From assembly GCA_002347155.1 (NCBI GenBank), contig DDXO01000120.1, forward strand, positions 17,709-81,708: a stretch of DNA of 64,000 nt. The letters run 5' to 3'. Source of the DNA: a candidate division WOR-3 bacterium UBA2258. GTDB taxonomy: Bacteria > Hydrothermota > Tepidihabitantia > Tepidihabitantales > Tepidihabitantaceae. The translations under genes and the position numbers were made by a program. Below the pieces are notes generated by a model. The model was not told the origin of the DNA and did not search any database. It saw only the letters and a program-made list of their open reading frames with translations. Below, in pieces: positions 1-63,243 of this stretch (position 1 is its first letter; the number at the start of each line of letters is the position of its first letter).

Positions 1-979
1 GGGTCGGGCAACTTGACAGCGAGATTGGCCTGTTTCATCTCAACTGCGTAATCGTCTTTGCCATCGAAGTCAGCAAATACGTTTCTGGCAAAGTTCACCT
101 CTGCGGGCGTAGCTCTCTTCTCCAAGGCCTCGAAGAAAGCCTCGGCGGTCAGATTGAACCGCGCAGCTGAACGGCCGCCGGCGTGCTCGGTCTGAGCGGC
201 GGCCACATCACAGCGGATGCTGCCCCCAACGCCTTCAGTCTTGACCGTAATCACGGTACGCGGGATTTCCTTGGTCCTTGCGACCCGACGGGGAATGACT
301 AGGTGCAGCTCTTCCTGTCCAATCACAGTGCGGAAGAGCTGGAGCTCCATAAGTGCCCAAGTGAAGCGTAGCAATGGCGCCTTGGAGAGGAAGTCGTCGA
401 CCATCCGCTCCACGTTCTCTCGGATGCCATCGCCAACAACCAGGAGCATGAATCTGCCTTCCCGCAAATTGCGGCCAACCGTGTCCACGAGGGACGACTC
501 GTCCAGTCCCTCTATGGGTCTTCCCCCTCTCTTCGAAAGCGTGGCAAGCACACCGTCATCACAACGCTCGTACTTTCTGTTGTATCCCCGCACGATACCG
601 TCCAGGTCATCGAACGACCAACCACTGATCTCCTTGGCGTAGTCCATAATCTGAGCTACCACTTCCCGGAGTGCCTGCGGATTACGCCACAGCTTGGTTT
701 CTACTATCGTGAGATACCCGCTTGGGCTGAGCAGTAGATTGTCTATGCTGCCGGAGGCTATTGCGACTTCACGGCCCACTGAGATTGGGGGGCCGAACAC
801 TGCATCGACCTCTTCGACGGGGAGAATGCGTGGATTGGCCCTGATGAAGTCCTGTAGCCACGCCTCCTTCTTGTTGTCGCTCGATCGCAGAATCACCCGC
901 TCGAGTCGCGGAACGACAAGAGATCCATCTGCCCTTATGAGGGACGGACCTCCTTGTGAACGCTCATTCTGACTAGGCA
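1..979 (-). CDS. hypothetical protein, 5'-partial in window (runs off the left edge); possible PD-(D/E)xK-type nuclease fold
   Basis: I translated the minus strand from ATG at 979 to position 1 with no stop (MPSQNERSQGG...IDNLLLSPSGYLTIVETKLWRNPQALREVVAQIMDY...). It is absent from the ORF track because it is truncated by the window edge. The D...E-x-K spacing (IDN..IVETKL) resembles a PD-(D/E)xK core. The two plus-strand ORFs listed here (217-642, 694-972) are S/R/P-rich low-complexity antisense artefacts. Confidence 0.45.
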
Positions 980-1588
980 TCACGCCTTCCTTTCACTGAA
1001 ATTGCCTGGCTGGATCACGCCAGCCCTCCGTAGGAGCTGCAAGGTACGGCCGAGTTCCGAACTGGCCGGTGTGCTTGTTATGACTGGGAGCATCTCAGCC
1101 ACCATCTCGCCTAGCGTAATGAGCCGCAGGGGATTACCGCGCAGCGCCTTGCGGAACCGCGGGTTGTTCTCCCAGTCCGAGCGGTCGCCGGACAGCCAGG
1201 TCACTGCTGTGACATACGTGAACTTGCGAGACCCCGTGAGTCGCGACACTTCGTCCCGGAACGCCGCGCTCCACTTCGGCACCATGAGCTCTCTGAAGCC
1301 CTGCAGAGACTCTCGGCCCGAGTGGATCTTGTTTTCTTTCAAGCCAGTGAGCTGATAGCCGACGCGGAATCCTCCCTGCCAGCTCTTACAGCTCACGGCC
1401 CAGACCCGATCGCTACCTCGTAGGCGCGGATTCACTCCGACAACGTCGATGTCGCTGGCGACGCAGTCGGCCTTGGTTTCGTAGTCGCGGTGACGCTTGC
1501 TGGGACGAAACTTCACGTTGTGCCGCGTGAAGTACCCTTTTGACTGCAGATAGTCGTCGACTACCTGCTCGAGGACGTCCTCCTTCAT
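980..1588 (-). CDS. hypothetical protein, possible PD-(D/E)xK nuclease-like (SDIDVVGV...AVSCKSW)
   Basis: A 202 aa ORF with coding-like composition. Its stop abuts the start of the downstream minus-strand gene at 979 (operon-like). A D-x-D...S-C-K arrangement suggests a restriction-endonuclease-like fold; this is inference only. Confidence 0.4.
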   Translation of the reverse strand: MKEDVLEQVVDDYLQSKGYFTRHNVKFRPSKRHRDYETKADCVASDIDVVGVNPRLRGSDRVWAVSCKSWQGGFRVGYQLTGLKENKIHSGRESLQGFRELMVPKWSAAFRDEVSRLTGSRKFTYVTAVTWLSGDRSDWENNPRFRKALRGNPLRLITLGEMVAEMLPVITSTPASSELGRTLQLLRRAGVIQPGNFSERKA

Positions 1589-1698
1589 CTTGGTGGGCGA
1601 ACTTCTCGTCGCATGATGCGAGACCCGTATGTGGTGAGGTTAGTCACGGCCGGATTCTAGGCCGCGCGGGCGGTCGTGTCAAATGGGCGGGAAAGCGG

Positions 1699-1935
1699 TC
1701 AGAACCCCAGACTCCCGTCCTCGATTCCGAGCGCGAGGGAAATCGCCAGCGCGTTGCGAAGCATGAACGACCCGTAGCCCTTCGCCAGTTGCGCCAGATG
1801 CTCGGCGGCCAGCGGGGTCCACTCAGCATCATCGGTCAGTATCTGTTCTAGCGATTCGGTCTTGCCGCAGTCCACGTTGTCGAAGAGCGTACGGTACTCG
1901 TTGACGAGCCCGCTCACATCTGCTTGAGCCGGCAT
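1699..1935 (-). CDS. hypothetical small protein (78 aa), first gene of a 3-gene minus-strand operon
   Basis: ORF with a balanced amino-acid composition, co-directional and closely spaced with 980-1588. Confidence 0.3.
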   Translation of the reverse strand: MPAQADVSGLVNEYRTLFDNVDCGKTESLEQILTDDAEWTPLAAEHLAQLAKGYGSFMLRNALAISLALGIEDGSLGF

Positions 1936-2050
1936 ATTGCCTCCTAAGTGAACTCATTTCGGTCGAGAAGAACGCCGTTGCGTGTCACCCCAGATTCTTG
2001 TATCAGAGATACGGTATGTAAAGCCCGTGGACATAAACCCATCAGCGCGG

Positions 2051-2275
2051 ATGATGTTGTATATGGCTAACGTCCGGGCCCGGTTCGGCCGCAGGTTGCG
2101 CGAGCTACGAATCAAGCGCAAGCTGTCGCAGGAAGCTCTGTCGTTCGAGGCCGACCTCGACCGGTCATACATCGGGCAGGTCGAGCGTGGCGAGTGCAAC
2201 ATCTCGCTTCAGAACATGGGGAAACTGGCACGGGCCCTCAAGGTCCGTCTGTCCGACCTTCTACGCGGGGTCTGA
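2051..2275 (+). CDS. XRE-family helix-turn-helix transcriptional regulator
   Basis: MANVRARFGRRLRELRIKRKLSQEALSFEADLDRSYIGQVERGECNISLQNMGKLARALKVRLSDLL is a canonical Cro/C1 HTH (LSQEAL...SYI..ERG). The track ORF starts at GTG 1982; the ATGs at 2051-2063 are more likely starts. Confidence 0.8.
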   Translation: MMLYMANVRARFGRRLRELRIKRKLSQEALSFEADLDRSYIGQVERGECNISLQNMGKLARALKVRLSDLLRGV

Positions 2276-2324
2276 GGTGCCGGCGCTACCATACAAGCCG
2301 GGCGACATCATCAAGTATGTCGAG

Positions 2325-2984
2325 ATGAACATGGCAGAGGGTGGGAGTTTCCAGAAGGGCATGAACTTCCGTCCGCGTGGAGGAACCAGCCTGTTTCTCA
2401 TGAGCACGCGTCGCGGTGCTCCGTACAACGACCGCGTGGAGAAGCAGGGCAGAGTGCTCATCTATGAGGGCCACAACGCCAAGCGGAGTCGGGGCGGTCC
2501 GGACCCGGCTATGATCGACCAGCCAGCCGTCACTCCGAGTGGACGATTTACGGAGAACGGGAGATTCGCGATCGCCGCCCGTGCGTTCAAGCAGAAGCGG
2601 GCTCCGGCCGAACCCATACGCGTCTATGACAAAGTCCACGAGGGTATCTGGGTATACAACGGCCTGTTCAACCTCGTTGACGCATGGCAAGAGGAATCTG
2701 GCCAGCGTAAGGTCTACAAGTTCAAGCTCGTGCTGGCAGAGGACCAAACTACTAGCCCTGCTCGTGCGGCGTTGGAGATCGAGCATACGCGAGTGATTCC
2801 GACACCTGTGAAGCAGGAAGTCTGGCTCCGCGACAAAGGCCGCTGTGTCATTTGCGGTGGTGACAAGAACCTCCATTTTGACCACATCATCCCATGGTCA
2901 AAGGGCGGCTCATCGTTGGTCGCGGAGAACATACAGCTTCTCTGCGCCAAGCACAACCTCGCAAAGCATGACCGGATAGAGTAG
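2325..2984 (+). CDS. HNH endonuclease with SRA/SAD-like N-terminal domain (putative modification-dependent Type IV restriction enzyme)
   Basis: C-terminal HNH motif: CVICGGDKNLHFDHIIPWSKGGSSLVAENIQLLCAKHN. The N-terminal region has SRA-like strings (LIYEGHNAKRSRGG; PIRVYDKVHEGIWVYNGLFNL). Start refined to ATG 2325, just after the XRE gene. Confidence 0.7.
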   Translation: MNMAEGGSFQKGMNFRPRGGTSLFLMSTRRGAPYNDRVEKQGRVLIYEGHNAKRSRGGPDPAMIDQPAVTPSGRFTENGRFAIAARAFKQKRAPAEPIRVYDKVHEGIWVYNGLFNLVDAWQEESGQRKVYKFKLVLAEDQTTSPARAALEIEHTRVIPTPVKQEVWLRDKGRCVICGGDKNLHFDHIIPWSKGGSSLVAENIQLLCAKHNLAKHDRIE

Positions 2985-3116
2985 GACCCCGTCCCACCCG
3001 GTCGACGTAGGTGCGTGGAGGCCGGCTTCTCCGGCCAGCTTTTCCTGGGACCAGCCTCGCTTCTCGCGAAGCCTTCGTATGTTGTGTCCGGCTATCTTCT
3101 TGATGTCTTCTGCCAC
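2910..3116 (-). pseudogene. frameshifted remnant of a second XRE-family HTH regulator
   Basis: MAEDIKKIAGHNIRRLREKRGWSQEKLAGEAGLH is an HTH first half. The expected continuation RTYVDRVGRG is found in the other minus frame (ORF 2887-3123), so there is a frameshift. The fragment overlaps the 3' end of the HNH gene. Confidence 0.4.
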
Positions 3117-3149
3117 GGGTCAATTATCCCGTCAGCGCCCTTACGGGCA

Positions 3150-3177
3150 ACGCCCTAAAGGGCGCAGGGCGTTTTTC
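3150..3177 (+). terminator. putative rho-independent terminator
   Basis: acgccct-aaagggcgc-agggcgt followed by ttttt. Confidence 0.4.
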
Positions 3178-3304
3178 GGCCTCGGCGGGCGGTTGCGGGT
3201 GAAGGACGCTTGTATCCGATAGACGCCTATCGGTCTACAGCCTATCGGTCGCAGCCAGGGAAAGTGCCCCAGAGGTCAAGTGGTCTAGTGGAGGACGGGG
3301 ACAA

Positions 3305-3492
3305 TTCAGAATTCAGAAACCAGAGACCAGAATTCAGAATTCCAGGGTTCCGGGCTGCCGATGTCGCGCGGCTAATCGGGGTGAACGGGCAGGGTCCGAG
3401 GATTCGAGGATTCCAGGAGTCGAGTGGCGGAACGGACGTATCCGGTCTCGGATAAATCAGAACTCAGAAACCAGATGTCAGAATGCAGAACG
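3305..3492. repeat. cluster of short degenerate tandem repeats (CAGAAYTCAGAAACCAGA x2; GAGGATTC; GTGGTCTAGTGG)
   Basis: Near-identical strings at 3305-3349 and 3452-3492. ccgaggattcgaggattccaggagtcgag at 3396-3424 recurs in altered form at 4840-4866. Confidence 0.6.
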
Positions 3493-3550
3493 TCGGAGAC
3501 TCACGACTTGATGTTCCTTCGACTTCGCTCAGGACAAGCCTTGGCGACCA

Positions 3551-3647
3551 TGGCGGTCACCCCATTTTCGATTGCCGGATCGACATCTGTGTCCATCAGT
3601 GTGCCTCCGTGTTGGCTCTCTTCGGGATTCCAGTGGCGTTCTTGGCG
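3551..3647. repeat. direct repeat 'B', copy 1 (~97 bp)
   Basis: tggcggtcaccccattttcgattgccggatcgacatctgtgtccatcagtgtgcctccgtgttggctctcttcgggattccagtggcgttcttggcg is ~93% identical to 4713-4836, which has a 21-bp internal duplication. Confidence 0.75.
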
Positions 3648-3726
3648 ACCTTGGCGGTTGGCGGTTAGCGGAGAACGGTTAGCGGAAGTGGGGCCGCCGA
3701 GGCAGGCGCAGAATTGCTGTGAGGGG

Positions 3727-4059
3727 CTAGAGCGACTTGCAGACCTGACGAAGAGTCAGGACAACGCGAGACCAGTCGCCGGGCGTGAGCCGGCCCAGCT
3801 TCCTGTCAACCAGGCTTCGTTGCAGCGCAGCGACTTTGTGAAGCCGCACGACCGATGGAAGCAGCAGTCCGGCCTGCTGCCATTCGTTCAGCGTAACGTC
3901 TTGCGGAGTTGCCGAGAGCTGACCGGTGACACGCGCTACAACGATGTCGTCATCGCCCGTATCAAGCAGAAGCAACGCCGGTCGTCGCTTTGATCCGGAC
4001 GCATCAGTGAAGGGAAACTTGAGCAGGACGATGTCGCCGGCCGCGTACGAAGCCAACAT
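3727..4059 (-). CDS. mazF: type II toxin, MazF/PemK family endoribonuclease
   Basis: GDIVLLKFPFTDASGSKRRPALLLL...IVVARVTGQ matches the PemK/MazF signature. Its start overlaps the upstream antitoxin stop at 4059. Confidence 0.85.
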   Translation of the reverse strand: MLASYAAGDIVLLKFPFTDASGSKRRPALLLLDTGDDDIVVARVTGQLSATPQDVTLNEWQQAGLLLPSVVRLHKVAALQRSLVDRKLGRLTPGDWSRVVLTLRQVCKSL

Positions 4060-4277
4060 CAGGGCCGGTCGTATGCGGCGTCGGCGGCGGCGTAGCCGGA
4101 CAGGAACTGGTCGGTAGTCAGGCTATCCCAGGCGGACTGCTCGTCCGCGTCAGACGGGTCGGGGACCAGGACGATCACTCGCGCAGTCTTGCCGGCGGGC
4201 AGTGTTCGACGCAGTCGCTCAGGGATCTCCAGGTTGCCTTCGGCAGTTATCTTCGCCGGCGACTCGTAGGCTTTCAT
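4059..4277 (-). CDS. type II antitoxin, AbrB/MazE (SpoVT-AbrB) family
   Basis: KITAEGNLEIPERLRRTLPAGKTARVIVL is a swapped-hairpin AbrB-like motif. Sits immediately upstream of mazF in the same operon. Confidence 0.7.
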   Translation of the reverse strand: MKAYESPAKITAEGNLEIPERLRRTLPAGKTARVIVLVPDPSDADEQSAWDSLTTDQFLSGYAAADAAYDRP

Positions 4278-4280
4278 GCG

Positions 4281-4499
4281 TCAGATGCCCTGCAGGCGGC
4301 CGCTACGCTTGGCGTCCTTCGCCTCGCGTACAAGGAAGTCCAGTTTGCCTGAGGCGGAATCGGTTTCGATCTCTCGGTCCCATGCCTGCCAGTCCCTTTC
4401 GAGGAACCAGCGGCGGAACTTGTCGTAGTCCGGTTCGGGCAATTGCTCGACCGCGGTCTCAAGCTCGGTCAATCGGCCGCCCATTTTCACAGGTGACAT
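4281..4499 (-). CDS. hypothetical small protein, first gene of the TA operon (possible accessory antitoxin-like component)
   Basis: ORF 4281-4535. The likely start is an internal Met (MSPVKMGGRLTELETAVEQLPEPDYDKFRRWFLE...), with a 3-nt gap to the antitoxin gene. I could not assign a family. Confidence 0.3.
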   Translation of the reverse strand: MSPVKMGGRLTELETAVEQLPEPDYDKFRRWFLERDWQAWDREIETDSASGKLDFLVREAKDAKRSGRLQGI

Positions 4500-4656
4500 A
4501 TGAGGTAGTGTAGCTGTATGGAGAACCGGAGTCAAGACGCGGGCGGGAGGGCGAGGTAGGATGTCAGATGCTGGACGTAAGAGGTCAGAAGTGCAGGAGG
4601 AAAGGGATCGAGGGATAGAGAGATCGAGGGATCGAGTGCGAGGAGTAGGGTTCTGG

Positions 4657-4709
4657 GGTTCGGGTCGAGAATCTGTGGAATCTGCGTAATCTGTGGATGT
4701 CCTCTCCGA
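4657..4709. repeat. direct repeat 'A', copy 1 (52-53 bp)
   Basis: ggttcgggtcgagaatctgtggaatctgcgtaatctgtggatgtcctctccga is identical to 4864-4915. It contains an internal AATCTGTGGA x2. Confidence 0.8.
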
Positions 4710-4712
4710 CCT

Positions 4713-4836
4713 TGGCGGTCACCCCATTTTCGAGTCTAGATTGCCGATTTTCGATTGCCGGATCGACATCTGTGTCCATCAGTGTGCATCCGTGGTTGGC
4801 TCTCTTCGGAATTCCGGTGGCGGTCTTGGCGGTTCT
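4713..4836. repeat. direct repeat 'B', copy 2
   Basis: See copy 1 at 3551-3647. Copies A-B-A sit upstream of the TA operon and copy B1 sits downstream of it. Confidence 0.75.
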
Positions 4837-4863
4837 CAAGGACTCGGGTTCCAGGATTCCGAG

Positions 4864-4915
4864 GTTCGGGTCGAGAATCTGTGGAATCTGCGTAATCTGT
4901 GGATGTCCTCTCCGA
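4864..4915. repeat. direct repeat 'A', copy 2
   Basis: Identical 52-mer to 4657-4709. Confidence 0.8.
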
Positions 4916-4950
4916 AGGGACGGAAGGGGTCAGATCGGCTAAATCCGTGG

Positions 4951-5007
4951 TAAACGGTTGTTTACATACCCTCTCAGGACCAGGTTGAGGTTAAGGTTGA
5001 GGTTAGG
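4951..5007. promoter_or_regulatory. inverted repeat GTAAAC-GGTT-GTTTAC followed by a (GGTTGA/GGTTAA)n hexamer tract, ~150 bp upstream of the ECF sigma gene
   Basis: gtaaacggttgtttac at 4951-4966 and ggttgaggttaaggttgaggttagg at 4982-5007. Possible operator site; the hexamer tract belongs to a recurring family in this window. Confidence 0.3.
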
Positions 5008-5161
5008 CATCTATCTGACAATCTAGTAATCACTTAGGAGAATTCTGGAACTGCGTTTTTCGGCTTGATTCCGGTGACGGGTTGGGTAATGTGTGACGTA
5101 GTTAATGCGGGGCTGGGCAGGATGTTTCCCGATGTGCCCGGCGCCGAAATGAGGAGTAACC

Positions 5162-5902
5162 ATGTGTAATAAGTCTGCAGGAAACAAGGCGTTACTGGTG
5201 AAGGAATCGGTGGCGCGGGTGCTGGCCGGCGATGTGGGGGCCTACTCGGCTATCTACAAGGTCTGCGATGGGCCGCTTCGTTCTTTCATCTGGTCGCGCC
5301 ACGGGCAGTTGGGCAGGGATTTCGTCTCCGAGGTCGCAATCCGCACTCACGAGTACGCGTTCTCGCACTTGAACAACTATCGCTCGGACCGGGGCGCATC
5401 GTTCCAGACGTGGCTGAACTGGCTGTCGCGGAACTTCGCCGGTCACGTCAGGCGGGAGTGGTACAACCAGAGGTTCGTGCGGTACGACCAGGCGCTGCAC
5501 GAGGCCTGGACGGTGACGGAGACCGGGCCGGCCGATGAGTATGAGGAGACGCGGCTCAGTCGCGTCCTGCACGAGGAGACCGAATCGCTGCCCGAGGCTG
5601 AACGGCAGGTCATCGTGCTGCACGACATCGAGGGCCTGCCGCATCCCGCGTGTGCAAGAGCAACGGGACTGACCTATGAGCAGGTACGTCATAGACGCAG
5701 GCTGGCCCTGGCCGCGCTGAGGCGGCGGTTGGAGCTGCGCGGCGTCAGTCCGGTGCCCGTAGACTCGACGCCCGCGCCCATCTGGTACGGCGAGGACAGG
5801 ACCGACCGGAATGACGGTTTGACGGCGCCGGAAACCGCCCTTCTGCCGGATGGTCCAGATGTGCTGGTTGGCGCAGCAGCCAAGGAGGAGGATGAAGAGT
5901 GA
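5162..5902 (+). CDS. RNA polymerase sigma-70 factor, ECF subfamily
   Basis: Region 2-like FQTWLNWLSRNFAGHVRRE and region 4 HTH LPEAERQVIVLHDIEGLPHPACARATGLTYEQVRHRRRLALAALRRRL. RBS GAGGAG sits 6 nt before ATG 5162. Confidence 0.8.
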   Translation: MCNKSAGNKALLVKESVARVLAGDVGAYSAIYKVCDGPLRSFIWSRHGQLGRDFVSEVAIRTHEYAFSHLNNYRSDRGASFQTWLNWLSRNFAGHVRREWYNQRFVRYDQALHEAWTVTETGPADEYEETRLSRVLHEETESLPEAERQVIVLHDIEGLPHPACARATGLTYEQVRHRRRLALAALRRRLELRGVSPVPVDSTPAPIWYGEDRTDRNDGLTAPETALLPDGPDVLVGAAAKEEDEE

Positions 5903-6175
5903 GGGAGGAAGGATAGACAGGAGAAGCCAGAGGCTGAGGCCCTGCCGCAAAGGCACAGAGACACTTAGAGATCCCGGAGTCCGGACCTTGGTGACTTGGT
6001 GTCCTGGTGGTTGAATCCGTTCTGCTGAGCTGCCGAATTCACGGCAGCTCTCTTTTCACAGGTAGGGGGTTGGCGTGAGTATAACATAGTGAAGGGGCAG
6101 AAGGCACAGTGGTCCAGGGATCAAGTGACCGAAGAAGCCCAAGTTCCGAAAAGAACCCAACAGGAAGGAGGGTCT

Positions 6176-6547
6176 GTGATAGACCCGACGAAGAGGATCG
6201 CCAACTGGAACGTGAAGTTCAACACCGAACGTATCAAGGCGACTCTCGATGAGAAGCGGCCGGCGATGCTGGCCAACGTCACCGCGGTGTACCCGATGAT
6301 CACGGCCATGGAGCTGCAGGTCAAGCAGGTCTGTGATGGCGCCGGAGTGGCGACCATCCAGTATCCGTTCTACCTCAACTTCGGCCGGGAGATGTGGGCG
6401 CTCTCCCGGAAGGAAATCTCCGGTGAGTCGCTCGCGCTGGAAGCCGCAATCCTGATCGCGAAGTGGAAGGCCCGCGGCCTGACCGAGGCCGTGCTGCAGG
6501 CCATCCGCACCGACGTCTTCAACGTCAGCGCGCCCATCGCGCCGTAA
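6176..6547 (+). CDS. hypothetical protein (~124 aa)
   Basis: Coding-like composition. Start refined to GTG 6176, which is preceded by AGGAGGG at a 5-nt spacing. The longer ORF from 6089 has no RBS. Confidence 0.4.
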   Translation: MIDPTKRIANWNVKFNTERIKATLDEKRPAMLANVTAVYPMITAMELQVKQVCDGAGVATIQYPFYLNFGREMWALSRKEISGESLALEAAILIAKWKARGLTEAVLQAIRTDVFNVSAPIAP

Positions 6548-6591
6548 GCGAAGGGTCAACCGCCAGGACGCCAGGCGGTTGGGAAGGAGAA

Positions 6592-6628
6592 GCCGGCGGG
6601 CCGTCGTGGCCCGCCGGCCTTGGTTTCG
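6592..6628. terminator. bidirectional intrinsic terminator between convergent genes
   Basis: Perfect 11-bp stem gccggcgggcc-gtcgt-ggcccgccggc followed by cttggtttcgg. Lies between the plus-strand gene ending at 6547 and the minus-strand serpin ending at 6658. Confidence 0.55.
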
Positions 6629-6657
6629 GTTGTGCCGAGCCTGCGGCTTGCCGCCTC

Positions 6658-7845
6658 CTACTGCTTGGGGTCGTAGATGGCGCCGAGGAAGAGGACCGAG
6701 CCGGTGACGTCGTCGCGGATGGCGCAGAGGAAGGGATGGTCGCAGACAAAGGAGAACTTGTCCTCAGGCCTCGGCACCGCGGTCATCATCATCTTGACCC
6801 CGGTCACCGCCGCCGCCTCGGTTCCTTCTTCGTTCACCTCGACGAACGTCTTGTGCAGGACGTCGCTGATTGCCGCGGTGGCAGGCGGCACGACCATCTT
6901 CGAGAAGTCGGCGCCGGGAGTGAACGCCAGCCCCATGCCGAGGACCTGGAGCGTCTTGACCAGGTTCTGCTCGAACTCGATCTTGAACCGTGGCAGCACG
7001 ACCGTGCCCTTCTTCTCGGCGAAGCCACTGAAGAGAGAGGAGGGAGAGGAGAGGAGGGAGGAGATCAGCTTCGCGAGGCCGTCCTTCGCGCGCGGCAGGA
7101 AGACGTACATGTTGAGCCGTTCGTCGCCGTAGGGCAGAACCACGGCCTGCATCGCGTCATCTTCCTTGTAGCGGAACTCGTCTTCCCGGTTCATCATCTG
7201 GCGCTGCGCCGCGCCCGCGGCGAGGTGGAACTCGCGCGCCGACGTGAGCTTGGGGTCGAACGCCTCGGTCCAGGTTCCTTTAAAGTAGATGGCGTTGACG
7301 AGGACAAGAAACTCATCGGGCGTCAGCTCGCTGACGATCTCCTTGATGCGGCCGCCCGTGTTCTTCGCCACCCAGTCATTTATGGTAGTGACGGCACTGG
7401 GCCGGCCGAAGTCAAGCGTGGTCACCGACGCCCGGTAGTAGCTGCCGCAGTCGTCGGCGAACTGCTTCCGCAGCATCACGCCTTTGCGCAGCCAGAGCGA
7501 GTTGGCGATGTCGAGCCGCACCCGCTTGTCCGCGCTGACGAGTTCCTCGCGCAGCTTCAGGTTGCCGGCCGCGACCTCGGCCCGGGAGAGCCCGGACACC
7601 TTCATCGCGCCGGCCATTGCCTCCCACGTTGCGCCGGCCGCTCCGTGCGCGGTCATCTGGAGCGCAAGCGCGATGCTCAGGGGCGAAATAAAGACGTTCT
7701 CCCCCGGTCTGGCGTCGGTCACGTAGCTGAAGACCTCGATCCCGAACTTGTTGTCGGCCTCGACCAGTTCCGCGGAACGGATTGCCGCCGGCTGGGCGCC
7801 GGATGCGGCCGCGCAGAAGAGGATGGCTGCGAGCAGTAGACTCAT
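6658..7845 (-). CDS. serpin (serine protease inhibitor) family protein, secreted
   Basis: FISPLSIALALQM, NAIYFKGTW, hinge/RCL EVNEEGTEAAAVTG, FVCDHPFLCAI. A signal-peptide-like N-terminus (MSLLLAAILFCAAASGA) begins at ATG 7845, which is preceded by GGAGG. It contains a GA-microsatellite-encoded insert (SSLLSSPSSLFS). Confidence 0.9.
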   Translation of the reverse strand: MSLLLAAILFCAAASGAQPAAIRSAELVEADNKFGIEVFSYVTDARPGENVFISPLSIALALQMTAHGAAGATWEAMAGAMKVSGLSRAEVAAGNLKLREELVSADKRVRLDIANSLWLRKGVMLRKQFADDCGSYYRASVTTLDFGRPSAVTTINDWVAKNTGGRIKEIVSELTPDEFLVLVNAIYFKGTWTEAFDPKLTSAREFHLAAGAAQRQMMNREDEFRYKEDDAMQAVVLPYGDERLNMYVFLPRAKDGLAKLISSLLSSPSSLFSGFAEKKGTVVLPRFKIEFEQNLVKTLQVLGMGLAFTPGADFSKMVVPPATAAISDVLHKTFVEVNEEGTEAAAVTGVKMMMTAVPRPEDKFSFVCDHPFLCAIRDDVTGSVLFLGAIYDPKQ

Positions 7846-8097
7846 GGTTCCTCCGATTATTCTCAAACAGGCTAGCCGGCTCGTCATTGCTTGTCAAAGA
7901 CAATCTACCTGCGGGCTCGGGAGGGTATTCCGGGAGGGAGGCCGGTGCTCAGGTGACAAGAGGGAAGTGCTCCAGTGCTCCTCACCCCAACCCTCTCCTC
8001 TGAGAGGAGAGGGAGAGCGAAGCGAGGGTGAGAAGGGGACGCAGGAAGAGACCGGAAGCCAGGGGTAGGATGGGCTGGTCAAGCGGTCGGAAAGGGA

Positions 8098-8133
8098 AGT
8101 GGTCGAGTAGCCTAGTGGTCCAGTGGTCCAGTG
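8098..8133. repeat. (AGTGGTC)n-type repeat tract at the 3' flank of tatC
   Basis: aagtggtcgagtagcctagtggtccagtggtccagtg. A related tract at 8817-8853 flanks the 5' side (tctagtggtcaggtggtctagcggtccagtgg), and another sits at 3281-3298. Confidence 0.6.
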
Positions 8134-8810
8134 CGCGGGCGGGCAAGCAGGGAGGCGAGGACGCCCAGCTCGAAGAGAAGAAGCAGCGGGACCGCCATCA
8201 GGGTCTGGCTGAACACGTCGGGCGGGCTCAGGACAGCCGCGACGACGAAAACGAGCACGACGGCAATCCGCTGGTTCTTCATCAGCAGCCGGGGGGTGAC
8301 CACACTCAGCTTGGTGAGGAAGAACATGATTACCGGTAGCTGGAAGATAACGCCGCAGGCGAGCAGGAACGCGCCCACCGTGCCGACGTACTCGCCGATG
8401 GAGAGCATTGCCTGGAGCTTCGGGCTCTGGAAGCTCAGAAGGAACTTCATCGCGACCGGTACGACCACCAGGTAGGAGAATGCGACCCCGGCGACGAACA
8501 GCACCGATGAGACGACCACCGCCGCCGCGATGTACTTGACCTCATGCTTGTACAGCGCGGGCCGGACGAACCGCCAGAACTGATAGAAAATCACCGGCGA
8601 AGCGATGAAAAGACCCGTGACCAGGGCAACTTTGAGCTGGACGACAAAGGCCTCGGCCGGGGCGAGATACACGAGCTTCGGCACCGGACGGGTCAGCAGG
8701 TCGAGCACCCGCTGCGAGACGAAGAACCCCGCGACCGCCGCTACGCCCACGGCGATCAGCGCGTAGAAGATACGTTTGCGGAGCTCTTCGAGATGGTCGA
8801 GGAAGGTCAC
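8112..8810 (-). CDS. tatC: twin-arginine translocase subunit TatC
   Basis: LEELRKR, PAEAFVVQLK, and six TM-like segments typical of TatC. Located downstream of tatA. Confidence 0.9.
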   Translation of the reverse strand: MTFLDHLEELRKRIFYALIAVGVAAVAGFFVSQRVLDLLTRPVPKLVYLAPAEAFVVQLKVALVTGLFIASPVIFYQFWRFVRPALYKHEVKYIAAAVVVSSVLFVAGVAFSYLVVVPVAMKFLLSFQSPKLQAMLSIGEYVGTVGAFLLACGVIFQLPVIMFFLTKLSVVTPRLLMKNQRIAVVLVFVVAAVLSPPDVFSQTLMAVPLLLLFELGVLASLLARPRTGPLDH

Positions 8811-8816
8811 TTGGAT

Positions 8817-8853
8817 AGTGATCTAGTGGTCAGGTGGTCTAGCGGTCCAGTGG
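8817..8853. repeat. (AGTGGTC)n-type repeat tract between tatA and tatC
   Basis: See 8098-8133. Confidence 0.6.
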
Positions 8854-8953
8854 CAGGAGGGAAGTCCTGCGGCTTGGCCATTACGGATTGAGACTACGCG
8901 GAGAACCACTCTGTTCGTGCACTTGTGCACTGGAGCACTAGAGCACTATCGGC

Positions 8954-14034: not shown

Positions 14035-17000
14035 GTGGCGACCGATTCCGGCCTTGCCTCGGCCGACGTAAGGGTCAACGACTGGCAGACCTACGACCTG
14101 CGCGGTACCGTGCGCGCGCTCGCGTTCGATGACCGCTATGTCTGGGCCGGCGGCGACTCCGGCCTCGCGCGGTTCGACAAGTTCTCGGAGACCTGGCAGC
14201 AGCGCTCGGAGGCACCGGTTCTCGCCCTGCTGGCTGCGGCGGAACGCGTCTGGATTGCCACCGCTACCGGCGTGCTCAGCTACGACCAGAAGTTCGACCG
14301 AATCGACGCGACGCCGGCGCCGGCCGACTCCTATACCCGCATAGTCGATACGCGGAATTCAATCTGGTTTGCAGGCCGGGTGCGGCTCGCCGGCTACCGG
14401 AAGGCCACGGCTTCGTGGACCGAATACAGCGCGATCCCCGCCGCCGACTTCTCGGTGCTCGGCGATTCCATCCTCTTCGCTGAAGACGGCGGACCGCTGG
14501 TCTATGATCCCGGCTCGGACCGCTGGGGTAAGCCGCAGCTCATCGGAATGCCCGACGTCGTGACCGATGCTTTCCTCTCGTCGTCGGAGATGCTCTTCGC
14601 GTCCGACCAGGGGCTCGTCATCATCGACACCAGAGAGAACACCCGGCAGGTCTGGACCAGGAGCAATGGCCTCGCTGATGACAGGCTCGTGCGGGTCTAC
14701 TGCGACCAGCGGTTCATCTACGCCCTGACCGCAGGCGGAATTCAGTACTTCGACCGCCAGCAGAAGCTCTGGAAACAGGAGGGTTTTGTACTGCCGCAGG
14801 CCCGCAGGAGGCAGCTTGCCTGGCTCGACGACGCGGGCGCCCACCTGGGTATCGTCCCCGACACCGACATCCGTCTGTCCGGCCGCGCCTACTACTCCCA
14901 GTCGCGGGTGTTCTCTGGCAGCAGCGGCACAACCAGCGACTTCGAGAACATCGGCCTGAACCTTCTGGCCCGGCATCGGTCCGGCCGCGCCCTCTCGCTC
15001 TTCTACGACGACTCGGACCGCGACCTCGTCGCCTATGGCCTCGGGTACCGCGGAGTGGGTCCCGACGTGCTCCACCGTGCGAATGCGGGGAAGCTCAAGT
15101 CCGAGTACTCGGAATTTGATCTCATACCGCCGTTCTCGACCCTCGGCGCGAATGCGCGTCTCATTCTTCCCCAATCCCCGGCCGCTAACCCCCGGGCCCT
15201 TTCGCTTGACCTGCAGGGCGGCCGCATCGAGTCGGCCCTGCGCAGCGACTTCTTCACGGGACGCTCGGTCGACAAGGAAGTCAGGCGGCCCGACATCGAC
15301 TACGCCCGCGGCGTCTTATACCGCCTGCCTTCACCAGCCGCCTCGCAGTGGGACACGGTGTTCGCCGACGACCGCATCCCGACAACGAACACCCCGAAGA
15401 CTCGCGTCGGTTGGACGGTCGGCGACGTCACCGGCGACTTCGACCCGCTCCTGCGCGGCTCCGACTACTTCGTTGACCGGGCCGGTAGCGTCATCTATTT
15501 CGTCGGCGCGCGCAAGCCCGGTGACATACTCGTGTTTGTCGGCAACGCGGGTGCACAGGTTCTCCAGTCCGAGTCCGTAGCCGGGAATGCGCTCCGGAAC
15601 ACGTACTTCTTCGGCCCGGACATCACGCCCGGGTCGTTCGAACTCCAAATCACCGATACCACGGGCGCGGTCCACGCCCTTTCCGGATTCGGCATCGACG
15701 ACGACAACGACGGCCGCGTGGACCCGGCCCATCTGGACCACGACCTCGGCTTTCTCTCTTTCCCTTCGCCCCTGGTCGCTGACTCGCTGGCCCCTTCCGT
15801 CTACTCGCTCCGCGCCACCTACCGCTCGCAATCGACCTTCTACAGCCTGACTCACAAGCCGGTGGTCAAGAACAGCGAAACCGTCGTCGTTGACGGTGCG
15901 GTGATGGCCCGCGGCTCCGACTATGTGCTGGACTACACCTCGGGCATCCTGCTGTTCCTGAAGAAAGACGTGGTCACCGACTACAGCCAGATTGACTTGC
16001 GCTACTCCACGGTCGAGCGGCCCGATTCGTGGACGACCAGGGACCTGCTCTTCTCCGCCCAGCCCGGCTTCACCCTTCTCGACTCGTCGTTCTCGGCTCA
16101 GCTTGCTCCCGGCTTCACGCGAGTGGCGGGCGAGAACATCGTCCACCTCTCCGGCCGGGCCGAGGCCGGAGCCGGCACGGACAAGAGCATCAGGTTTGTG
16201 CCCCAGTTCGCGGTCCGCTGTCCGACCGGGGCCGCTGCGGCCAACAGCGACAAGGCGCTGGCCCAGGACTACTCGTTGAGCGGCAACTTCGGCGTGTTCA
16301 GCGCCGCGGCGCAGTACCGCGGGTTCGGCCCGGGTTTCGAGGAGTTCGGGGCCGGAGAACGGCGCTACGGCGTGCTCCGCCATGCGGCCGCGTTCTCGGC
16401 CGGGGCCGAACCCTTGTCGCATCTCCGCGTCGACGGCACGGCTAGGCGTGACTACGTCGCCGACCCGCTTGCGCCGGACGCGGCGCTGCTGACTGCCGAC
16501 TACTTGTCCGGCAAACTCAGCTACGTCAACCCGAAGTACCCGAGCGGATTCGTGCTCTGCGCCAACGACCGCCTGCCGGACGGGAACCGGCTCCGGGCCA
16601 AAGCGAACGCCGGCTACGAGTTCACACTCCTCAAATCCAGGCTCAAGCTCAACGGCATCGTCCAGAACAGCTCACTTGAGCACTTGAGCACTAGTGCACT
16701 AGAGCACTCTCTTGAGTACATCGCCGAGGCGACCTTCGCCCTGCCCTTCCCGGTCCAGGGCAGCATCCGTTATCGAAACAACGGCCTCTCAAGCGACGGT
16801 ACGCAAACCCGCCGCGAGGACGAACTCCGCGGCCAGCTCAACATCGACGTCGTCCCGGGGTTATACTACACCGGATCCTACAACCTCCTGACCGGGATGA
16901 GTTCGCTCGGCGCCACCCGGGACCTTGAACTTGAGGGCTACCTGTACAACAACCTGCAGGTCGCACCCGGCCGCTGGTGGTCGAAGCTGTCGGTCGTCAA

Positions 17001-24552: not shown

Positions 24553-25928
24553 TGCGTAACTGTCTCAATCCAGATCGGTTCCTGCACACGCGCCTCCCTT
24601 TCAGGGAGTCGAGCGCGACGCGGCAGACCGAACTCGGTGATCTGCTGGTGGCCTCCATATTTGATTTCCTAAGTGCCACGCCGAGCATGCCCTCGCCCGG
24701 CTGCTTCGACGTGACCCGAGAGCGCCCCGGATCAGCTTTCCCCTCCCTCGTCAAATTGATGCAGGGAGAAAAAGAAAAGACCCCGGCGGTTAGATACGTG
24801 CACATTCCGTTCCACAGACGGTGTTGGAGGGCGTCGATGTATCACCCCCAGGCTATGTGAGTTGCCCGACACGAGCGTGCCGCCGCCGCCGTTGGAATCA
24901 CAGCCGCCACCTCGCTTTGCCGCGATTCACGGCAGCGGCTGCCGCAGACTGCGAAGGCAGCGCGTGGCGAGAACAGCGGGTGGCACCCAGCGCCAACCGA
25001 GCTGTGACGTCTCCCTGCTTCTGCTGCTGGCCGTCGGGATGGCTGCGCCGCGCCATGGGTTGCTTTGAAGACTTAGCACTCCCGTAGGCAGAGAGCCCGC
25101 CTTAAGGCGAGGACACCGAATGACAGGCTCCGCTTGGGTAGCGCAATTCGAATGCAGACAGTCCTCGAGACACACCGATGCGCACCCACGCGTCGGCGCT
25201 GCCGCTCGTGCGTTGCAGGACCGGCGCGATGCAAACGCCCACTGGCGCCACTGTACCCCGTGCCTGCGCGAAGCAGTGCGCCTGACGGACACGGGACGGA
25301 CCGTAACCACGGGTCGAGGCGACGCGGTCTTGGCGGTTCTTCAGCGCACGCTCCTGCCACGTCCAGCATCGCAGGACCCATGGTCTGATTATGCAGGAAC
25401 TGAGCGAAGGATGAGAACGAGGGGGTGCTCCGCTCTCGTCTCCCCTGCTCATGGCAGCGGCGCCTTTGCGCTTCCCCCCGAGAGGCGGTGTTTTTCCTTG
25501 CCTGAGCCACTCTCGTCCGGTATATTCCAAGGGACTTGGAGTCTATCGTCGTCGGTTGGTGCTGGAATCGCGGACACGGGACGCTGCCTGTCCCGAGGCC
25601 GGCAGTGCTGCTTTCTAGAGAAGGACAGGTGCAGACCGCTGCCAGAATCTGCGGCAACAGCGCCGGGAAAACCGGCTGCTATCCCTTCCGTCCGGTTCTC
25701 TCCGAGGCCAAGTCACATAGCCACAACATGATACGACAACCAGGGCCCCTCAAAGATGGAACGGAAGGTGCACACTATGATAGCTTATGGCTGTGCGCAC
25801 TTCCTCCGCCTCGCTGCCTGTCGGGCAACTGGTTGGAGTCGTATTTGGACGCCCGCCCGCAGCTTGTGCGGCCCGAGGTCGGCACGCGACCGACACCGGA
25901 CGGCTCGACGCTGGCTGCCTGACACGAC

Positions 25929-28521: not shown

Positions 28522-29686
28522 GCCGGTCCCCAGTCCCCAGTCCCCAGTCCCCAGTCCCTTAGACCTACCTGAGGGTGTACCGGCTTTGCGGGCGTTCTAT
28601 CTCTACATGTCCAATACCTGCAACCTCCGTTGTCGCCACTGCTGGATAACGCCGGGATTCGGCGACGGCAAGGAGACGCCAGGCGATTTTGTGGACCCCG
28701 AGGCGCTGCGTCAAGCCGTGGTCGAAGCCAAACCGCTCGGGCTTTGCTCGGTGAAGCTGACCGGTGGCGAACCGATGCTCCATCCCCGTTTCATGGAAAT
28801 CGCGGACCTGTTGACGGCGGAGGGGATGCACATGGACATGGAGACCAATGGCACCCTCATGACCGCTGAGAAGGCGCGTCATCTGAAAGAAAAGACGAGT
28901 GTCACATTCATCTCGGTCAGCCTGGATGCACCTGACGCCCGCTCGCACGACAGCTTCCGTGGAGTACCCGGCGCGTTCGACGCAGCCGTGCGCGGGCTCG
29001 ATTGCCTGGTGAACGCCGGGTACAGAAACTGCCAGGTTATCATGAGCGTTCACAAGGGCAATCGCCACCAGGTCGAGGAAGTTGTCGCTCTTGCCGCAGC
29101 CCATGGTGCAAATTCGGTGAAGTTCAACCCGGTCACCAGGACCGGCCGGGGCGCGGCAATGGAGGAAAGCGGCGAGGTAATGGACTACGACGAGCATCTC
29201 GCCTTTGCGCGGTATGTGTCAACCGAGCTACGTCCGAAAGCCCGGGTTGGAGTCATCCTCAATATGCCCCCGGCCTTGTCATCGATGCGCGACCTCTTGC
29301 GTACCCACGGCCGGACCGGTGACTGCGGTGTTTTGCGCATCCTTGGGGTATTGGGGAATGGCGACATCGCCCTGTGTGGCATCGGCCGGACAGTCCCGGA
29401 ACTGGTCTACGGGAAACTCGGCCGCGACAGCATTCGCGACATCTGGTTCTCCAACCCGACGATCCTCGGTCTGCGCCGAGCCCTGACGGACGTTGATGCG
29501 CTGCCGCTCCCCTGCGCCAAGTGTCTGTTCGTGAGGACATGTCGCACCGGGTGCGTGGCGAACAACTACACGGAAAGCGGGTCGTTGATTGCGCCGACCT
29601 GGCTGTGCGCGGAGGCTGAACGCCGCGGCGTCTTCCCGGGCAAGCGAGCGCAGAGAAGGACGTCTGGGGGCGAAAGAAAGGGATAG
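28508..29686 (+). CDS. radical SAM / SPASM-domain peptide-modifying enzyme 2
   Basis: CNLRCRHC; SPASM CGIGRT...CAKCLFVRTCRTGCV. GTG start overlaps rSAM-1 by 14 nt. The N-terminus contains the (CCCCAGT)4-encoded PVPSPQSPVPSP. Confidence 0.9.
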   Translation: MSICEPVPSPQSPVPSPLDLPEGVPALRAFYLYMSNTCNLRCRHCWITPGFGDGKETPGDFVDPEALRQAVVEAKPLGLCSVKLTGGEPMLHPRFMEIADLLTAEGMHMDMETNGTLMTAEKARHLKEKTSVTFISVSLDAPDARSHDSFRGVPGAFDAAVRGLDCLVNAGYRNCQVIMSVHKGNRHQVEEVVALAAAHGANSVKFNPVTRTGRGAAMEESGEVMDYDEHLAFARYVSTELRPKARVGVILNMPPALSSMRDLLRTHGRTGDCGVLRILGVLGNGDIALCGIGRTVPELVYGKLGRDSIRDIWFSNPTILGLRRALTDVDALPLPCAKCLFVRTCRTGCVANNYTESGSLIAPTWLCAEAERRGVFPGKRAQRRTSGGERKG

Positions 29687-34890: not shown

Positions 34891-35685
34891 ATGACTGAGG
34901 GACAGCAGCGGACGGCAGGCCCCGGGAAGGGAGAACCAGATGCGCTTGCTTCGAACAGGCCGGGCTGGACGGCCGACTTCCCTTCGGTTGAGTCAATCGT
35001 AGTCGACGGTCGGCGGCGCGTCGTCTATACCGGGCCCAGCATGAATCCGACCCTGCGCGTGCCGGACATCCTGTGGGTAGAACCATATGGGAAAAGGCCT
35101 GTACGAGCCGGAGATGTCGTCTGCTTCGCGTCGCCTGAGCTTGACACCAACATCGTACACCGCGTCATCTCCGTCCGTCCTTCGTCCCCAGTCCCTGGTC
35201 CCTCGTCTCCCGTCTCCGGTCTCCGGTCTTCCGTCCTCGGTCTTCCGTCTCCGGTCGCCATCCGGACGCAGGGCGACAATAACCCATTGGCCGACACCCG
35301 GGTTCTTGCGCCTGCTGACCTATTGGGGCGGGTAGTGGCGGCGCAGCGCGGCACGCGGCTCCGTTCCATCCATGGTGGCCACGCCGGCCTGATGGTCGCT
35401 TGGAGTGTAAAGCTGGGAAAGGCGATCTGGGGGGTCGTTGCCGGCGTCGCGAGCGCCGTCTACCAGAGCCTCATCCAGGGAAGTCGGTTTGGCTTCCTGC
35501 TGCCCGGCGGCCTGAGACCCAGACTGGTCTCCTTCAAAGGACGTGACGCACCGATCTTCAGGGTGCTTATGGGCGGTCGGACGGTCGGACACTATGACTA
35601 TCGCTACCATCAGTGGCACATCCGGCGACCATTCCGCTTGTTCGTGGACGAACGTACCCTACCCGACCCGAAGTCCAAGGACTAG
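34891..35685 (+). CDS. signal peptidase I-like S26 peptidase, SipW/Sec11 (Ser/His) type, probably the leader peptidase
   Basis: GPSMNPTL (box B Ser) and IVHRVISV (box D His) both intact; RTQGDNNPLAD box. In-frame insert of CCGTCT-family repeats (PSSPVPGPSSPVSGLRSSVLGLPSPV) at 35170-35258. Confidence 0.75.
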   Translation: MTEGQQRTAGPGKGEPDALASNRPGWTADFPSVESIVVDGRRRVVYTGPSMNPTLRVPDILWVEPYGKRPVRAGDVVCFASPELDTNIVHRVISVRPSSPVPGPSSPVSGLRSSVLGLPSPVAIRTQGDNNPLADTRVLAPADLLGRVVAAQRGTRLRSIHGGHAGLMVAWSVKLGKAIWGVVAGVASAVYQSLIQGSRFGFLLPGGLRPRLVSFKGRDAPIFRVLMGGRTVGHYDYRYHQWHIRRPFRLFVDERTLPDPKSKD

Positions 35686-39560: not shown

Positions 39561-39785
39561 GACCCTAGTTCACTTCCCTGGAACCGAGACTGAAACCGCG
39601 AACGAGAGACACGAAGCGACAAGAAGTCATCCACTGATTACGCAGATTACACCGATGGTCTCAAGCCCGAGTCTGCGGAATCCGTGGCATCTGTGGATAT
39701 CCGCTCTGGCTCCCATTCCGTGTCTCAACTGCGACGGCAAGACCGGGCGCCCGCCGAATCTGCCGGACGAAACCTCCACGTAGTC

Positions 39786-58978: not shown

Positions 58979-59177
58979 GTGTTCACCTTGACCTTAGCCT
59001 TGACCTTAACCTGCCGAGAGGCAGTGGTTGAGGTTGAGGCGGCCGACCAGGCTGAGGTTGAGGTGAAGTCTGAGACCCCGGTCCTCGGTCATCCGTCATC
59101 CGTCTTCCGTCACCGGTCATCGGTCCTCCGTCATCCGTCTTCCGCCCTCCGTCACCGGTCATCCGTCTTCCCATCCT
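58925..59177. repeat. intergenic spacer composed of two hexamer-repeat families (GGTTGA/CCTTAA type then CCGTCA/CCGGTC type)
   Basis: ccttgaccttagccttgaccttaacctg...ggttgaggttgaggcggccgaccaggctgaggttgaggtgaag; then tccgtcatccgtcttccgtcaccggtcatcggtcctccgtcatccgtcttccgccctccgtcaccggtcatccgtcttcc. Confidence 0.8.
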
Positions 59178-63018: not shown

Positions 63019-63114
63019 GGCAGGTTGAGGTTAAGGTTGAGGTTGAGGCCGAGGAACAGGCTGAGGTTGAGACTAGGGTTGAGAAAGAACAGACCGAGGT
63101 CGAGGCAGAGATGC
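63019..63114. repeat. (GGTTGA/GGTTAA/GGCTGA)n hexamer tract filling the spacer upstream of wzt
   Basis: aggttgaggttaaggttgaggttgaggccgaggaacaggctgaggttgagactagggttgag... Confidence 0.8.
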
Positions 63115-63243
63115 TCACTTAGAGGACCTCCGGAGGGACGAGATCACGCGGTTGAGCTCGGTATGGACTTGGTCGAGTCTGTCGGAGAGCGCCGCAACAT
63201 CGGACGCCGCCAGGTAGCCGACGCGCCCATCAATGAAGGCTGA
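63115..63243 (-). pseudogene. truncated duplicate (C-terminal ~40 aa) of the adjacent four-helix-bundle protein gene
   Basis: DGRVGYLAASDVAALSDRLDQVHTELNRVISSLRRS aligns with GRRVGYIPASVANDLSVKLEFLHTDLNKVISALKKQ of 63354-63773. The rest of the ORF (to 63357) is translation of the hexamer tract. Confidence 0.5.

Follow-up and report, generated by a model that had tools for sequence, protein, structure and literature searches.

A toxin-antitoxin (TA) operon of the mazEF type lies between two copies of a direct repeat of ~100 bp (repeat B) in a stretch of 64,000 nucleotides from the candidate division WOR-3 bacterium UBA2258 (contig DDXO01000120.1, positions 17,709 to 81,708; hereafter the window), and the second of these copies is itself enclosed by two copies of another repeat (repeat A). 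The question raised by this locus is whether the repeats mark the ends of a cassette that carries the operon, as a preliminary description of this DNA proposed, or whether they bear some other relation to the genes beside which they stand. We have found that closely related strains carry different alleles of this locus, whose breakpoints lie inside A and inside a 73-nt core of B. In our judgement, the locus is best explained, with a probability of roughly 0.55, as a repeat-mediated variable spot beside a resident mazEF operon, with homologous recombination between dispersed copies of the repeats as the mechanism.

The repeats A and B are real and far beyond chance: sub-patterns of 19-30 nt taken from them were observed 2 times in the sequence, compared with 0.00-0.03 times expected from 100 dinucleotide-preserving shuffles. 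B was recovered at both of the places, and nearly at the coordinates, that had been given for it, and the gap between B1 and the stop codon of mazF (3727-3729) was measured as 67-80 nt, in agreement with the ~80 bp reported. The two copies, which are 94-96% identical, align in blocks of 27, 51 and 37 nt at 92-96% identity (94% over 85 nt), and the sharply bounded core of B1 spans 3570-3641. The 21-bp duplication described inside B2 is also present, in an imperfect form. A1 and A2 are 95% identical over 63 nt; as described, A flanks B2 and contains AATCTGTGGA twice in each copy, and the identical stretch is 53 nt long (4657-4709 = 4863-4915) rather than 52 bp starting at 4864. The B core reads ATCTGTGTCC ATCAGTGTGC ATCCGTGG TT, that is, three phased decamers ending in GTGGTT. 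In an alignment of four copies, including those of the two contigs L003 and L167 introduced below, a core of 73 nt is common to all copies, with sharp borders and differing flanks. The short tandem repeats noted around the operon were recovered by Tandem Repeats Finder as nine arrays of period 6-10 between 3303 and 5005. A 17-mer of B, reported to recur in a non-coding gap at 25322-25338, does recur, at 25324-25340 and inside a called open reading frame (ORF; 25120-25731, 203 aa); the match covers 17 nt only, its flanks are dissimilar (blastn E 0.007, 2-kb query), and it is probably coincidental.

The same locus was found at 98.8-100% identity in the metagenomes JGI 3300002821, JGI 3300001580, ENA ERZ27315071, ENA ERZ27315072 and Logan SRR5324050, and three alleles could be distinguished among strains that are 98.8-99.9% identical. 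The first allele, on contig L174 (ERZ27315071), has a single A, no B2 and no B1 block, and carries the same operon at the same place by the sigma-factor gene, in the order sigma gene, hexamers, one A, octamers, promoter, operon. Positions 1-484 of L174 correspond to window positions 5336 to 4853, and positions 422-1439 to window positions 4709 to 3692, the overlap of 63 nt being A. Over the window segment 3692-4709, which comprises the operon, A and the promoter region, the identity is 98.8%; L174 differs from the window by 12 single nucleotide polymorphisms (SNPs), and has a unique 18 nt in place of the 260-nt B1 block (3432-3691), followed by the spacer module M2. As L174 has the same operon in place and yet lacks B altogether, the mazEF module is not delimited by B; the cassette-like character proposed in the preliminary description holds only insofar as the repeats are tied to the gain or loss of DNA. 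The second allele, A1-B2-A2, is that of the window and of two JGI contigs. The third, A1-B-(parDE cassette)-B-A2, is represented in ERZ27315072 by the contigs L003 and L167. As far as 4825, L003 follows the window; beyond this point it leads through heptamer repeats into parE (A1-B''-heptamers-parE), whose product shares 93% identity with the representative of a ParE cluster (PF05016). L167 runs from the sigma side through A2 into B', where its 5' flank is unlike the window, and then enters 150 nt of another sequence, X. The identity of both contigs to the window is 99.9% outside B. In this insert parE is present and parD is presumed, the middle being unassembled; the full insert is unseen because L003 and L167 are not joined. 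The parDE-containing insert stands exactly between two B copies, and the single B2 of the window is a hybrid of the 5' part of B'' in L003 and the 3' part of B' in L167, with the switch between 4769 and 4809. What varies between alleles is thus the DNA enclosed by repeat copies, namely B2 where the copies are of A and a parDE-containing segment where they are of B. The octamer array next to the operon promoter is present in all three alleles, and look-ups with the SRA-HNH protein and with the antitoxin gave no further alleles.

According to the favoured explanation, copies of A and B would have accumulated on both sides of the resident gene3-mazE-mazF operon and would serve as portable homology, such that a crossover inside A (63 nt) or inside the 73-nt B core could add or remove the intervening DNA, including a whole parDE cassette. 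The arrangement A1-B2-A2 would most simply be the footprint left after B x B recombination around a parDE insert; alternatively, and equally possibly, it could be the site at which parDE enters by single-crossover (Campbell-type) integration. In the same way, A x A recombination would be expected to leave the single A of L174; the events could equally well have run the other way, by insertion. Both breakpoints fall within stretches of identity, which is exactly the outcome of single-crossover integration or of a deletion between direct repeats. That the recombination is homologous (RecA-type), in which direction the events ran, and whether the motif described below serves the cell are matters of inference. 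Several points weigh against this explanation. All alleles come from contigs of short-read metagenomes, in which a chimeric join or a skipped loop is possible, and insertion and deletion cannot be polarised for A and B2. The origin of the B1 block is unexplained, as no flanking repeat accounts for its arrival and offers a route by homologous recombination. The word 'dispersed' rests on diverged relatives, because only two to three B copies of the exact type were found. Finally, a sharp 73-nt core with copy-specific flanks also resembles a site-specific att site.

Table 1. Coordinates of the repeats, genes and other sequence features considered here (positions in the window)
Feature	Position	Strand	Basis or remarks
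Repeat B1	~3540-3660	+	repeat search and blastn; four-copy alignment
Repeat B2	4707-4840	+	core 4753-4825; imperfect internal 21-nt duplication at ~4733-4753
Repeat A1	4647-4709	+	three 9-nt units AATCTGYGN ending GTGGAT; contiguous with B2
Repeat A2	4853-4915	+	partial copy, A half only
B1 block	3432-3691	+	260 nt; B1 plus CAGAA-type heptamer array (3450-3490)
Spacer module M2	3386-3442		kept 3' of mazF in related strains
Octamer array (AGGGATCG)n	4603-4636	+	between operon promoter and A1; Tandem Repeats Finder
Hexamer array (AGGTTG)n	4982-5005	+	between sigma-factor gene and A2; Tandem Repeats Finder
mazF-type toxin, 110 aa	3727-4059	-	Pfam PemK_toxin E 2.7e-10; gene call in four public assemblies
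Antitoxin, mazE-like partner, 72 aa	4059-4277	-	one-base overlap with mazF start
Third operon gene, 72 aa, no family	4281-4499	-	called by JGI and ENA gene callers
Promoter-like site TTGACT-17-TACACT	4507-4535	-	consensus scan; ends 7 nt before ATG at 4499
Inverted pair of A-like arms	39628-39710		hairpin weak, z -1.09

Integron cassette arrays are recognized by an IntI integrase beside the array, which is not needed for clusters of attC sites lacking integron integrases (CALINs), and by attC sites, which are imperfect palindromes of 57-141 nt with a core pair RYYYAAC ... GTTRRRY that form a hairpin as a single strand; their cassettes mostly lack promoters, and each is followed by a recombination site of its own. 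When the large ORFs and called genes were checked against Pfam across the 64-kb window, no domain of an integrase, transposase, recombinase or REP-associated tyrosine transposase (RAYT) was found, and the precomputed Pfam annotation of called genes up to ~6 kb beyond the window start contained no recombinase. Elsewhere the window has genes for Tat components, DUF362/Fe-S proteins and ABC transporters, together with a PqqD and radical-SAM/SPASM cluster and a cluster of polysaccharide genes. No attC core pair was found in 3000-5300 on either strand, A and B as single-stranded DNA fold no better than shuffled sequences (z +0.05 to +0.77), and there are no terminal inverted repeats at the unit borders, the segment 2500-6000 containing three weak inverted pairs (14-19 nt, 79-88%); B indeed lacks attC cores and terminal inverted repeats, as was already noted in the preliminary description. 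The TA cassettes arrayed between similar direct repeats of ~100 nt typical of the host lineage do recall the sedentary chromosomal integrons of the Vibrio type and CALINs (PMC4889954; PMC13108822). However, a chromosomal integron or CALIN was rejected for lack of an integrase among the genes checked, of an attC core pair and of a fold. B does follow mazF and parE at 60-70 nt, but homologous cassettes elsewhere lack it; the cassettes carry their own promoter-like sites, and the repeats differ from genome to genome and may be copies of the 3' end of a housekeeping gene (in L010, see below). Likewise, a vehicle of the miniature inverted-repeat transposable element (MITE) type, which would be bounded by terminal inverted repeats and a short target-site duplication, was rejected for want of such inverted repeats and of a transposase among the ORFs and genes checked in the window. 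We therefore regard the two vehicles that had been envisaged for the module as extremely unlikely.

Relatives of the repeats were found in other genomes, contrary to the possibility entertained earlier that A and B occur nowhere else. A composite with the same A-to-B order and junction is located at 12272-12450 of L009, a WOR-3 metagenome-assembled genome (MAG; nhmmer E 1e-9). It consists of an A-like triple of AATCTGYG ending in GTGGATG, followed by TCCTYTCC, CTTGGCGG..CAC, ~45 variable bases and the B core, and is intergenic, 5 kb from the mazEF pair of that genome and in the opposite relative orientation. Locus L165 shows the layout of B1, that is, CAGAA-type heptamers, two CTTGGCG with TCAC, and the B core. 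The A-like inverted arms elsewhere in the window (Table 1) indicate that A, too, is a dispersed family. Altogether, two B copies and four A-type arms are seen in the 64-kb window and the fragments of related genomes covered. On balance, A and B probably each form half of a single mosaic repeat that is dispersed in the intergenic DNA of the WOR-3-type lineage and built from phased tandem units of 9-10 nt.

The B core also defines a motif of much wider distribution. The pattern GTCCATCNGTGTNCATCCGTGG matched at least 120 metagenome stretches, in which the motif takes the form of three phased decamers ATCYGTGTNC ending in GTGGTT(A/G)A; its 30-nt unit, ATCCGTGTCCATCYGTGTYCATCCGTGGTT, is located at 3585-3612 and 4768-4796 in the window. 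The contigs with the motif (loci L046-L165) number at least 120, have GC contents of 35-72% and originate from soil, peat, sediment and bioreactors. Among the matches listed, an inverted partner lies 14-224 nt upstream in 54 of the 124 instances and downstream in 5, and from this upstream bias the typical unit would be CCACGGATG... spacer ...CATCCGTGG, with the GGTT ends outward. In such pairs, whose outward ends read GGTTAA, the variable loop may hold other repeat families. The arms keep the ATCYGTG units without covariation at the variable positions, where the observed/expected arm identities are 0.62/0.67, 0.44/0.45 and 0.40/0.38; because the arms do not covary, recognition as a DNA sequence rather than as an RNA stem is suggested. 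In L153 the motif stands directly 5' of aroA, and the named relatives of this AroA belong to the Verrucomicrobiota; the B core is nearly base-for-base alike in WOR-3 and Verrucomicrobiota contigs. According to crude ORF calls, 60 of the 124 instances would be 'inside' ORFs, and the rest are distributed about evenly over the four orientation classes.

This motif does not correspond to an Rfam family in scans of the window at the gathering score, of 3000-5300 at E values up to 5, and of 12 motif-bearing loci, which returned only one tRNA and one chance snoRNA match. A typical inverted pair had no blastn match in plasmids or phages, a result to which the low-complexity filter may contribute, and the motif strings were not found in the literature searched. 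An exact 22-mer of the B core had no match in the collections of genome contigs and metagenome contigs, which evidently lack the source sample, and the six-frame translation of A1-B2-A2, concatenated as one pseudo-protein so as to reveal further copies through spurious ORFs lying across them, matched none of 5.8 billion proteins.

TA cassettes standing between repeats were also found in related genomes. In L010 (JAUWNN010000257.1, a WOR-3 MAG, 1-3200), fusA is followed by mazEF, an orphan fusA 3' end, an MNT/HepT pair and a second orphan copy. The fusA gene encodes the domains EFG_III, EFG_IV and EFG_C, and the orphan 3' ends match at 87.6% and 92.6% (the second with EFG_C). The three diverged copies of the fusA 3' end span 732-1015, 1632-1841 and 2830-3084, and the two gene-proximal ones have a common C-terminal tail, unlike that of the distal orphan. 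Tandem accretion of integrating elements leaves a pattern of this kind, which keeps a site-specific mechanism alive; no integrase is present on the 4-kb contig. In L006, parDE lies between direct repeats of 100 nt (86%). The 8-kb array of L008 (ENA ERZ27245787 k141_228703, 1-8234) comprises seven small modules (ParE/Unstab_antitox, MNT, AAA_14/DUF4143, DUF4258/DUF2283, parDE, mazEF and MNT/HepT), most of which are toxin-antitoxin pairs. Its spacers all consist of the same ordered blocks of tandem repeats with units of 6-7 nt (AATCTGN; TAGTCCC/TGGTCCC; TCAGTCC/TCCGTCC; AACCTY hexamers) and have stretches of 117-214 nt in common at ~90% identity; spacers are C-rich and G-poor on the coding (sense) strand, with GC skews of -0.15 to -0.41. 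That homologous cassettes stand between different local repeats in each genome fits insertion mediated by repeats or accompanied by long target duplication, and fits less well an attC-like site that travels with the cassette.

The principal rival explanation holds that B is an att-like site of a site-specific recombinase encoded in trans, and that integrase-less TA cassettes bringing their own B integrate at a chromosomal B and pile up, in an integron-like accretion, or one like that of cis-mobilizable elements (CIMEs), without IntI or attC. It would account for the sharp 73-nt core in four B copies with differing flanks, those of B' and B'' on the insert side being unlike the flanks in the window, and for the position of B1 and B'', both 60-70 nt 3' of a toxin stop codon (of mazF and of parE, respectively) in the same orientation; it also has a parallel in the classical accretion of L010, where three diverged fusA 3' ends surround two TA cassettes. 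Nevertheless, we consider it unlikely, given that the gene checks described above revealed no recombinase in the 64 kb or in the ~6 kb before the window, and that close parDE and mazEF homologues elsewhere do without B and are flanked by local repeats. Moreover, the breakpoint between the first and second alleles lies in A, not in B, and the identical crossover window of 41 nt in B2 fits plain homologous recombination equally well. A bolder conjecture would make A and B members of an undescribed, cross-phylum family of phased decamers at which a novel trans-acting recombination system recognizes the DNA and crosses over. Such a system would move small integrase-less TA cassettes and stack them as an integron does, yet with neither IntI nor attC, and in some genomes would land behind a housekeeping gene, as at the 3' end of fusA in L010; we consider this quite improbable.

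It is similarly improbable that A and B are simply functional cis elements, such as protein-binding sites, transcriptional insulators or Rho-entry regions, whose duplication is incidental, even though the almost base-for-base conservation of the B core between WOR-3 and Verrucomicrobiota, the phasing of its units at 9-10 nt, the ATCYGTG units kept in non-covarying inverted arms, and the strand asymmetry of the C-rich spacers would all agree with such a role. By crude gene calls the motif shows no orientation preference relative to flanking genes, and B is dispensable for the operon, because the operon of L174 exists without it. A role of B as promoter or terminator of the operon was rejected, as the promoter-like site is located 110 nt from A1 and no terminator-like site was found in B1. 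With regard to the suggestion that the repeats are protein-binding or small RNA elements, a structured RNA is disfavoured by the lack of a fold signal, of an Rfam match and of covariation, and protein binding may still hold; such a function would be compatible with the recombination explanation and not exclusive of it. Less probable again is the reading in which slippage within a repeat-rich spacer duplicated A and B locally and the 'alleles' are products of mis-assembly at repeats. The region is full of slippage-prone short tandem arrays, B2 contains its internal 21-nt duplication, and unitig assemblies break exactly at B1, A1 and A2. However, L003 and L167 continue into unique non-window sequence (the parE gene and the 150 nt of X, respectively), L174 has its 12 SNPs and unique 18-nt substitute for the B1 block, a collapse is unlikely because A (63 nt) is shorter than the assembly k=141, and relatives of A and B occur in other genomes.

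Several known systems come close to this locus. Insertion with long target duplication has been described for restriction-modification units, with direct repeats of >30 bp around the insert that both align to a single copy in an insert-less relative, and with an insert that carries the addiction module but no other mobility gene (Furuta, Abe and Kobayashi 2010, PMC2853133). Here, A1 and A2 (63 nt) surround B2, and L174 contains only one A, between the same outer flanks. The likeness extends to long direct repeats by an addiction-type module, to an empty site in a near-identical strain and, among the genes checked, to the absence of a mobility gene. In contrast to the published cases, the cargo is B with or without a parDE cassette, and not mazEF: the insert between the A copies is B2 alone in the window, and holds parE and presumably parD in ERZ27315072. 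Furthermore, the cassette is enclosed by B and B in turn by A, in a nested arrangement, and these repeats derive from dispersed families instead of a unique target sequence. The repetitive extragenic palindromic (REP) sequences, bacterial interspersed mosaic elements (BIMEs) and REP doublets forming hairpins (REPINs) (Bertels and Rainey 2011, PMC3116915; PMC3337134) are likewise short dispersed extragenic repeats, found singly or in inverted doublets whose spacer varies; they form mosaics with other modules and are known substrates of rearrangement. A REP is present in many copies per genome, and a cognate RAYT (a Y1 transposase) is encoded in the genome. Unlike a REP, the unit here is not a palindrome; it consists of three phased decamers, and its arms do not covary. 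Unlike the lineage-specific REPINs, the core occurs in at least two phyla, the window copies are direct singlets, and no RAYT or other transposase was seen in the window. The hybrid B2, and the stacked cassettes between orphan fusA 3' ends in L010, can also be compared to solo-LTR formation and to tandem accretion. A solo long terminal repeat (LTR) is the single hybrid repeat left after recombination of two flanking direct repeats. Unlike in those systems, no retroelement or integrase is present as far as seen, and the cassettes measure only 0.6-1 kb.

The locus offers a population-level example, in a poorly known candidate phylum, of the gain or loss of a TA cassette without a linked mobility gene and with breakpoints in nested repeat families. 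It also points to a 30-nt phased-decamer motif common to WOR-3 and Verrucomicrobiota that is in neither Rfam nor the searched literature. Should proteins bind this motif, or should it be a site of recombination, the genomes of soil and sediment bacteria would have a widespread feature that has gone unannotated; should it be only slippage-prone filler that recombines, the alleles would be a tidy but ordinary case of repeat-mediated insertions and deletions.

The operon itself encodes a toxin of the PemK/MazF family and, upstream of it, a small overlapping antitoxin gene, as in mazEF modules of type II. The family of the antitoxin is weakly assigned (NCBIfam RelN antitoxin domain, E 2.3e-5, below the family cut-off), and the toxin and antitoxin genes are conserved together in five WOR-3 loci. 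For the third gene, neither Pfam nor NCBIfam gave a match, and it was not found at the mazEF loci of L008, L009 and L010, the flanks of which were read. The closest genomes with this mazF are MAGs labelled 'candidate division WOR-3'. At the nucleotide level, mazF and the antitoxin gene are 77-80% identical in L008, L009 and L041, with the homology limited to the stretch from the mazF stop through the antitoxin start; since it ends at the coding borders, the flanks are not part of the conserved cassette, and neighbouring genes and flanks differ in every related genome with mazEF. A site TTGACT-17-CATACT precedes mazE in L008 and L010, and the TA operons of the lineage have in common a promoter-like site of the form TTGACT-17-(C/T)A(T/C)ACT (window 4499-4535; L008 6040-6085; L010 1020-1070), which in the window precedes the extra third gene, not mazE. 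The spacing of only 7 nt from this site to the start codon in the window points to a transcript that is leaderless or nearly so.

Downstream of mazF, the module M2 is 82% identical to L008 6661-6716 and ~80% identical to the tail of L174; in L008 it begins 26 nt after the mazF stop, and there is no B1 block. The stretch from the mazF stop to M2 is hypervariable: L008 has 26 nt there, L174 has 57 nt that include two small hairpins, and the window, with B1, has 285 nt. Where L174 has its second hairpin (TCGGACAGTGCGACTGTC), the window has the B1 block instead (L174 1405-1460 versus window 3432-3706).

Degenerate tandem arrays of period 6-9 are found in intergenic regions throughout the window (75 rows of Tandem Repeats Finder output), for example at 8098-8133, 8817-8948, 16673-16708, 28526-28558, 35176-35256, 59078-59171 and 63022-63347, and include (GTCATCC)x12 and GTCCCCA heptamers; the AGGTTG unit of the hexamer array recurs at 63021-63347 and in every spacer of L008. 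The arrays look like a genome-wide habit of the lineage and not a feature of the TA locus, and the heptamers recall the short tandemly repeated repetitive (STRR) heptamers of heterocystous cyanobacteria. A longer tandem repeat, with a unit of 42 nt in 2.6 copies at 95% identity, lies at 35796-35906, at the 5' end of the ORF 35733-37055; as the NTP_transf_5 domain begins only at residue 65, the true start of this ORF may be further downstream and the repeat intergenic. On the other side of the mazEF locus, a truncated ORF of the XRE helix-turn-helix (HTH) type (2910-3116, minus strand) matches HTH models over its first ~35 residues only and extends into the 3' end of a gene for an SRA-HNH endonuclease (1982-2984, plus strand), which itself has an HTH gene upstream. 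This ORF looks like the remnant of an older small module that was overwritten by the HTH/SRA-HNH pair.

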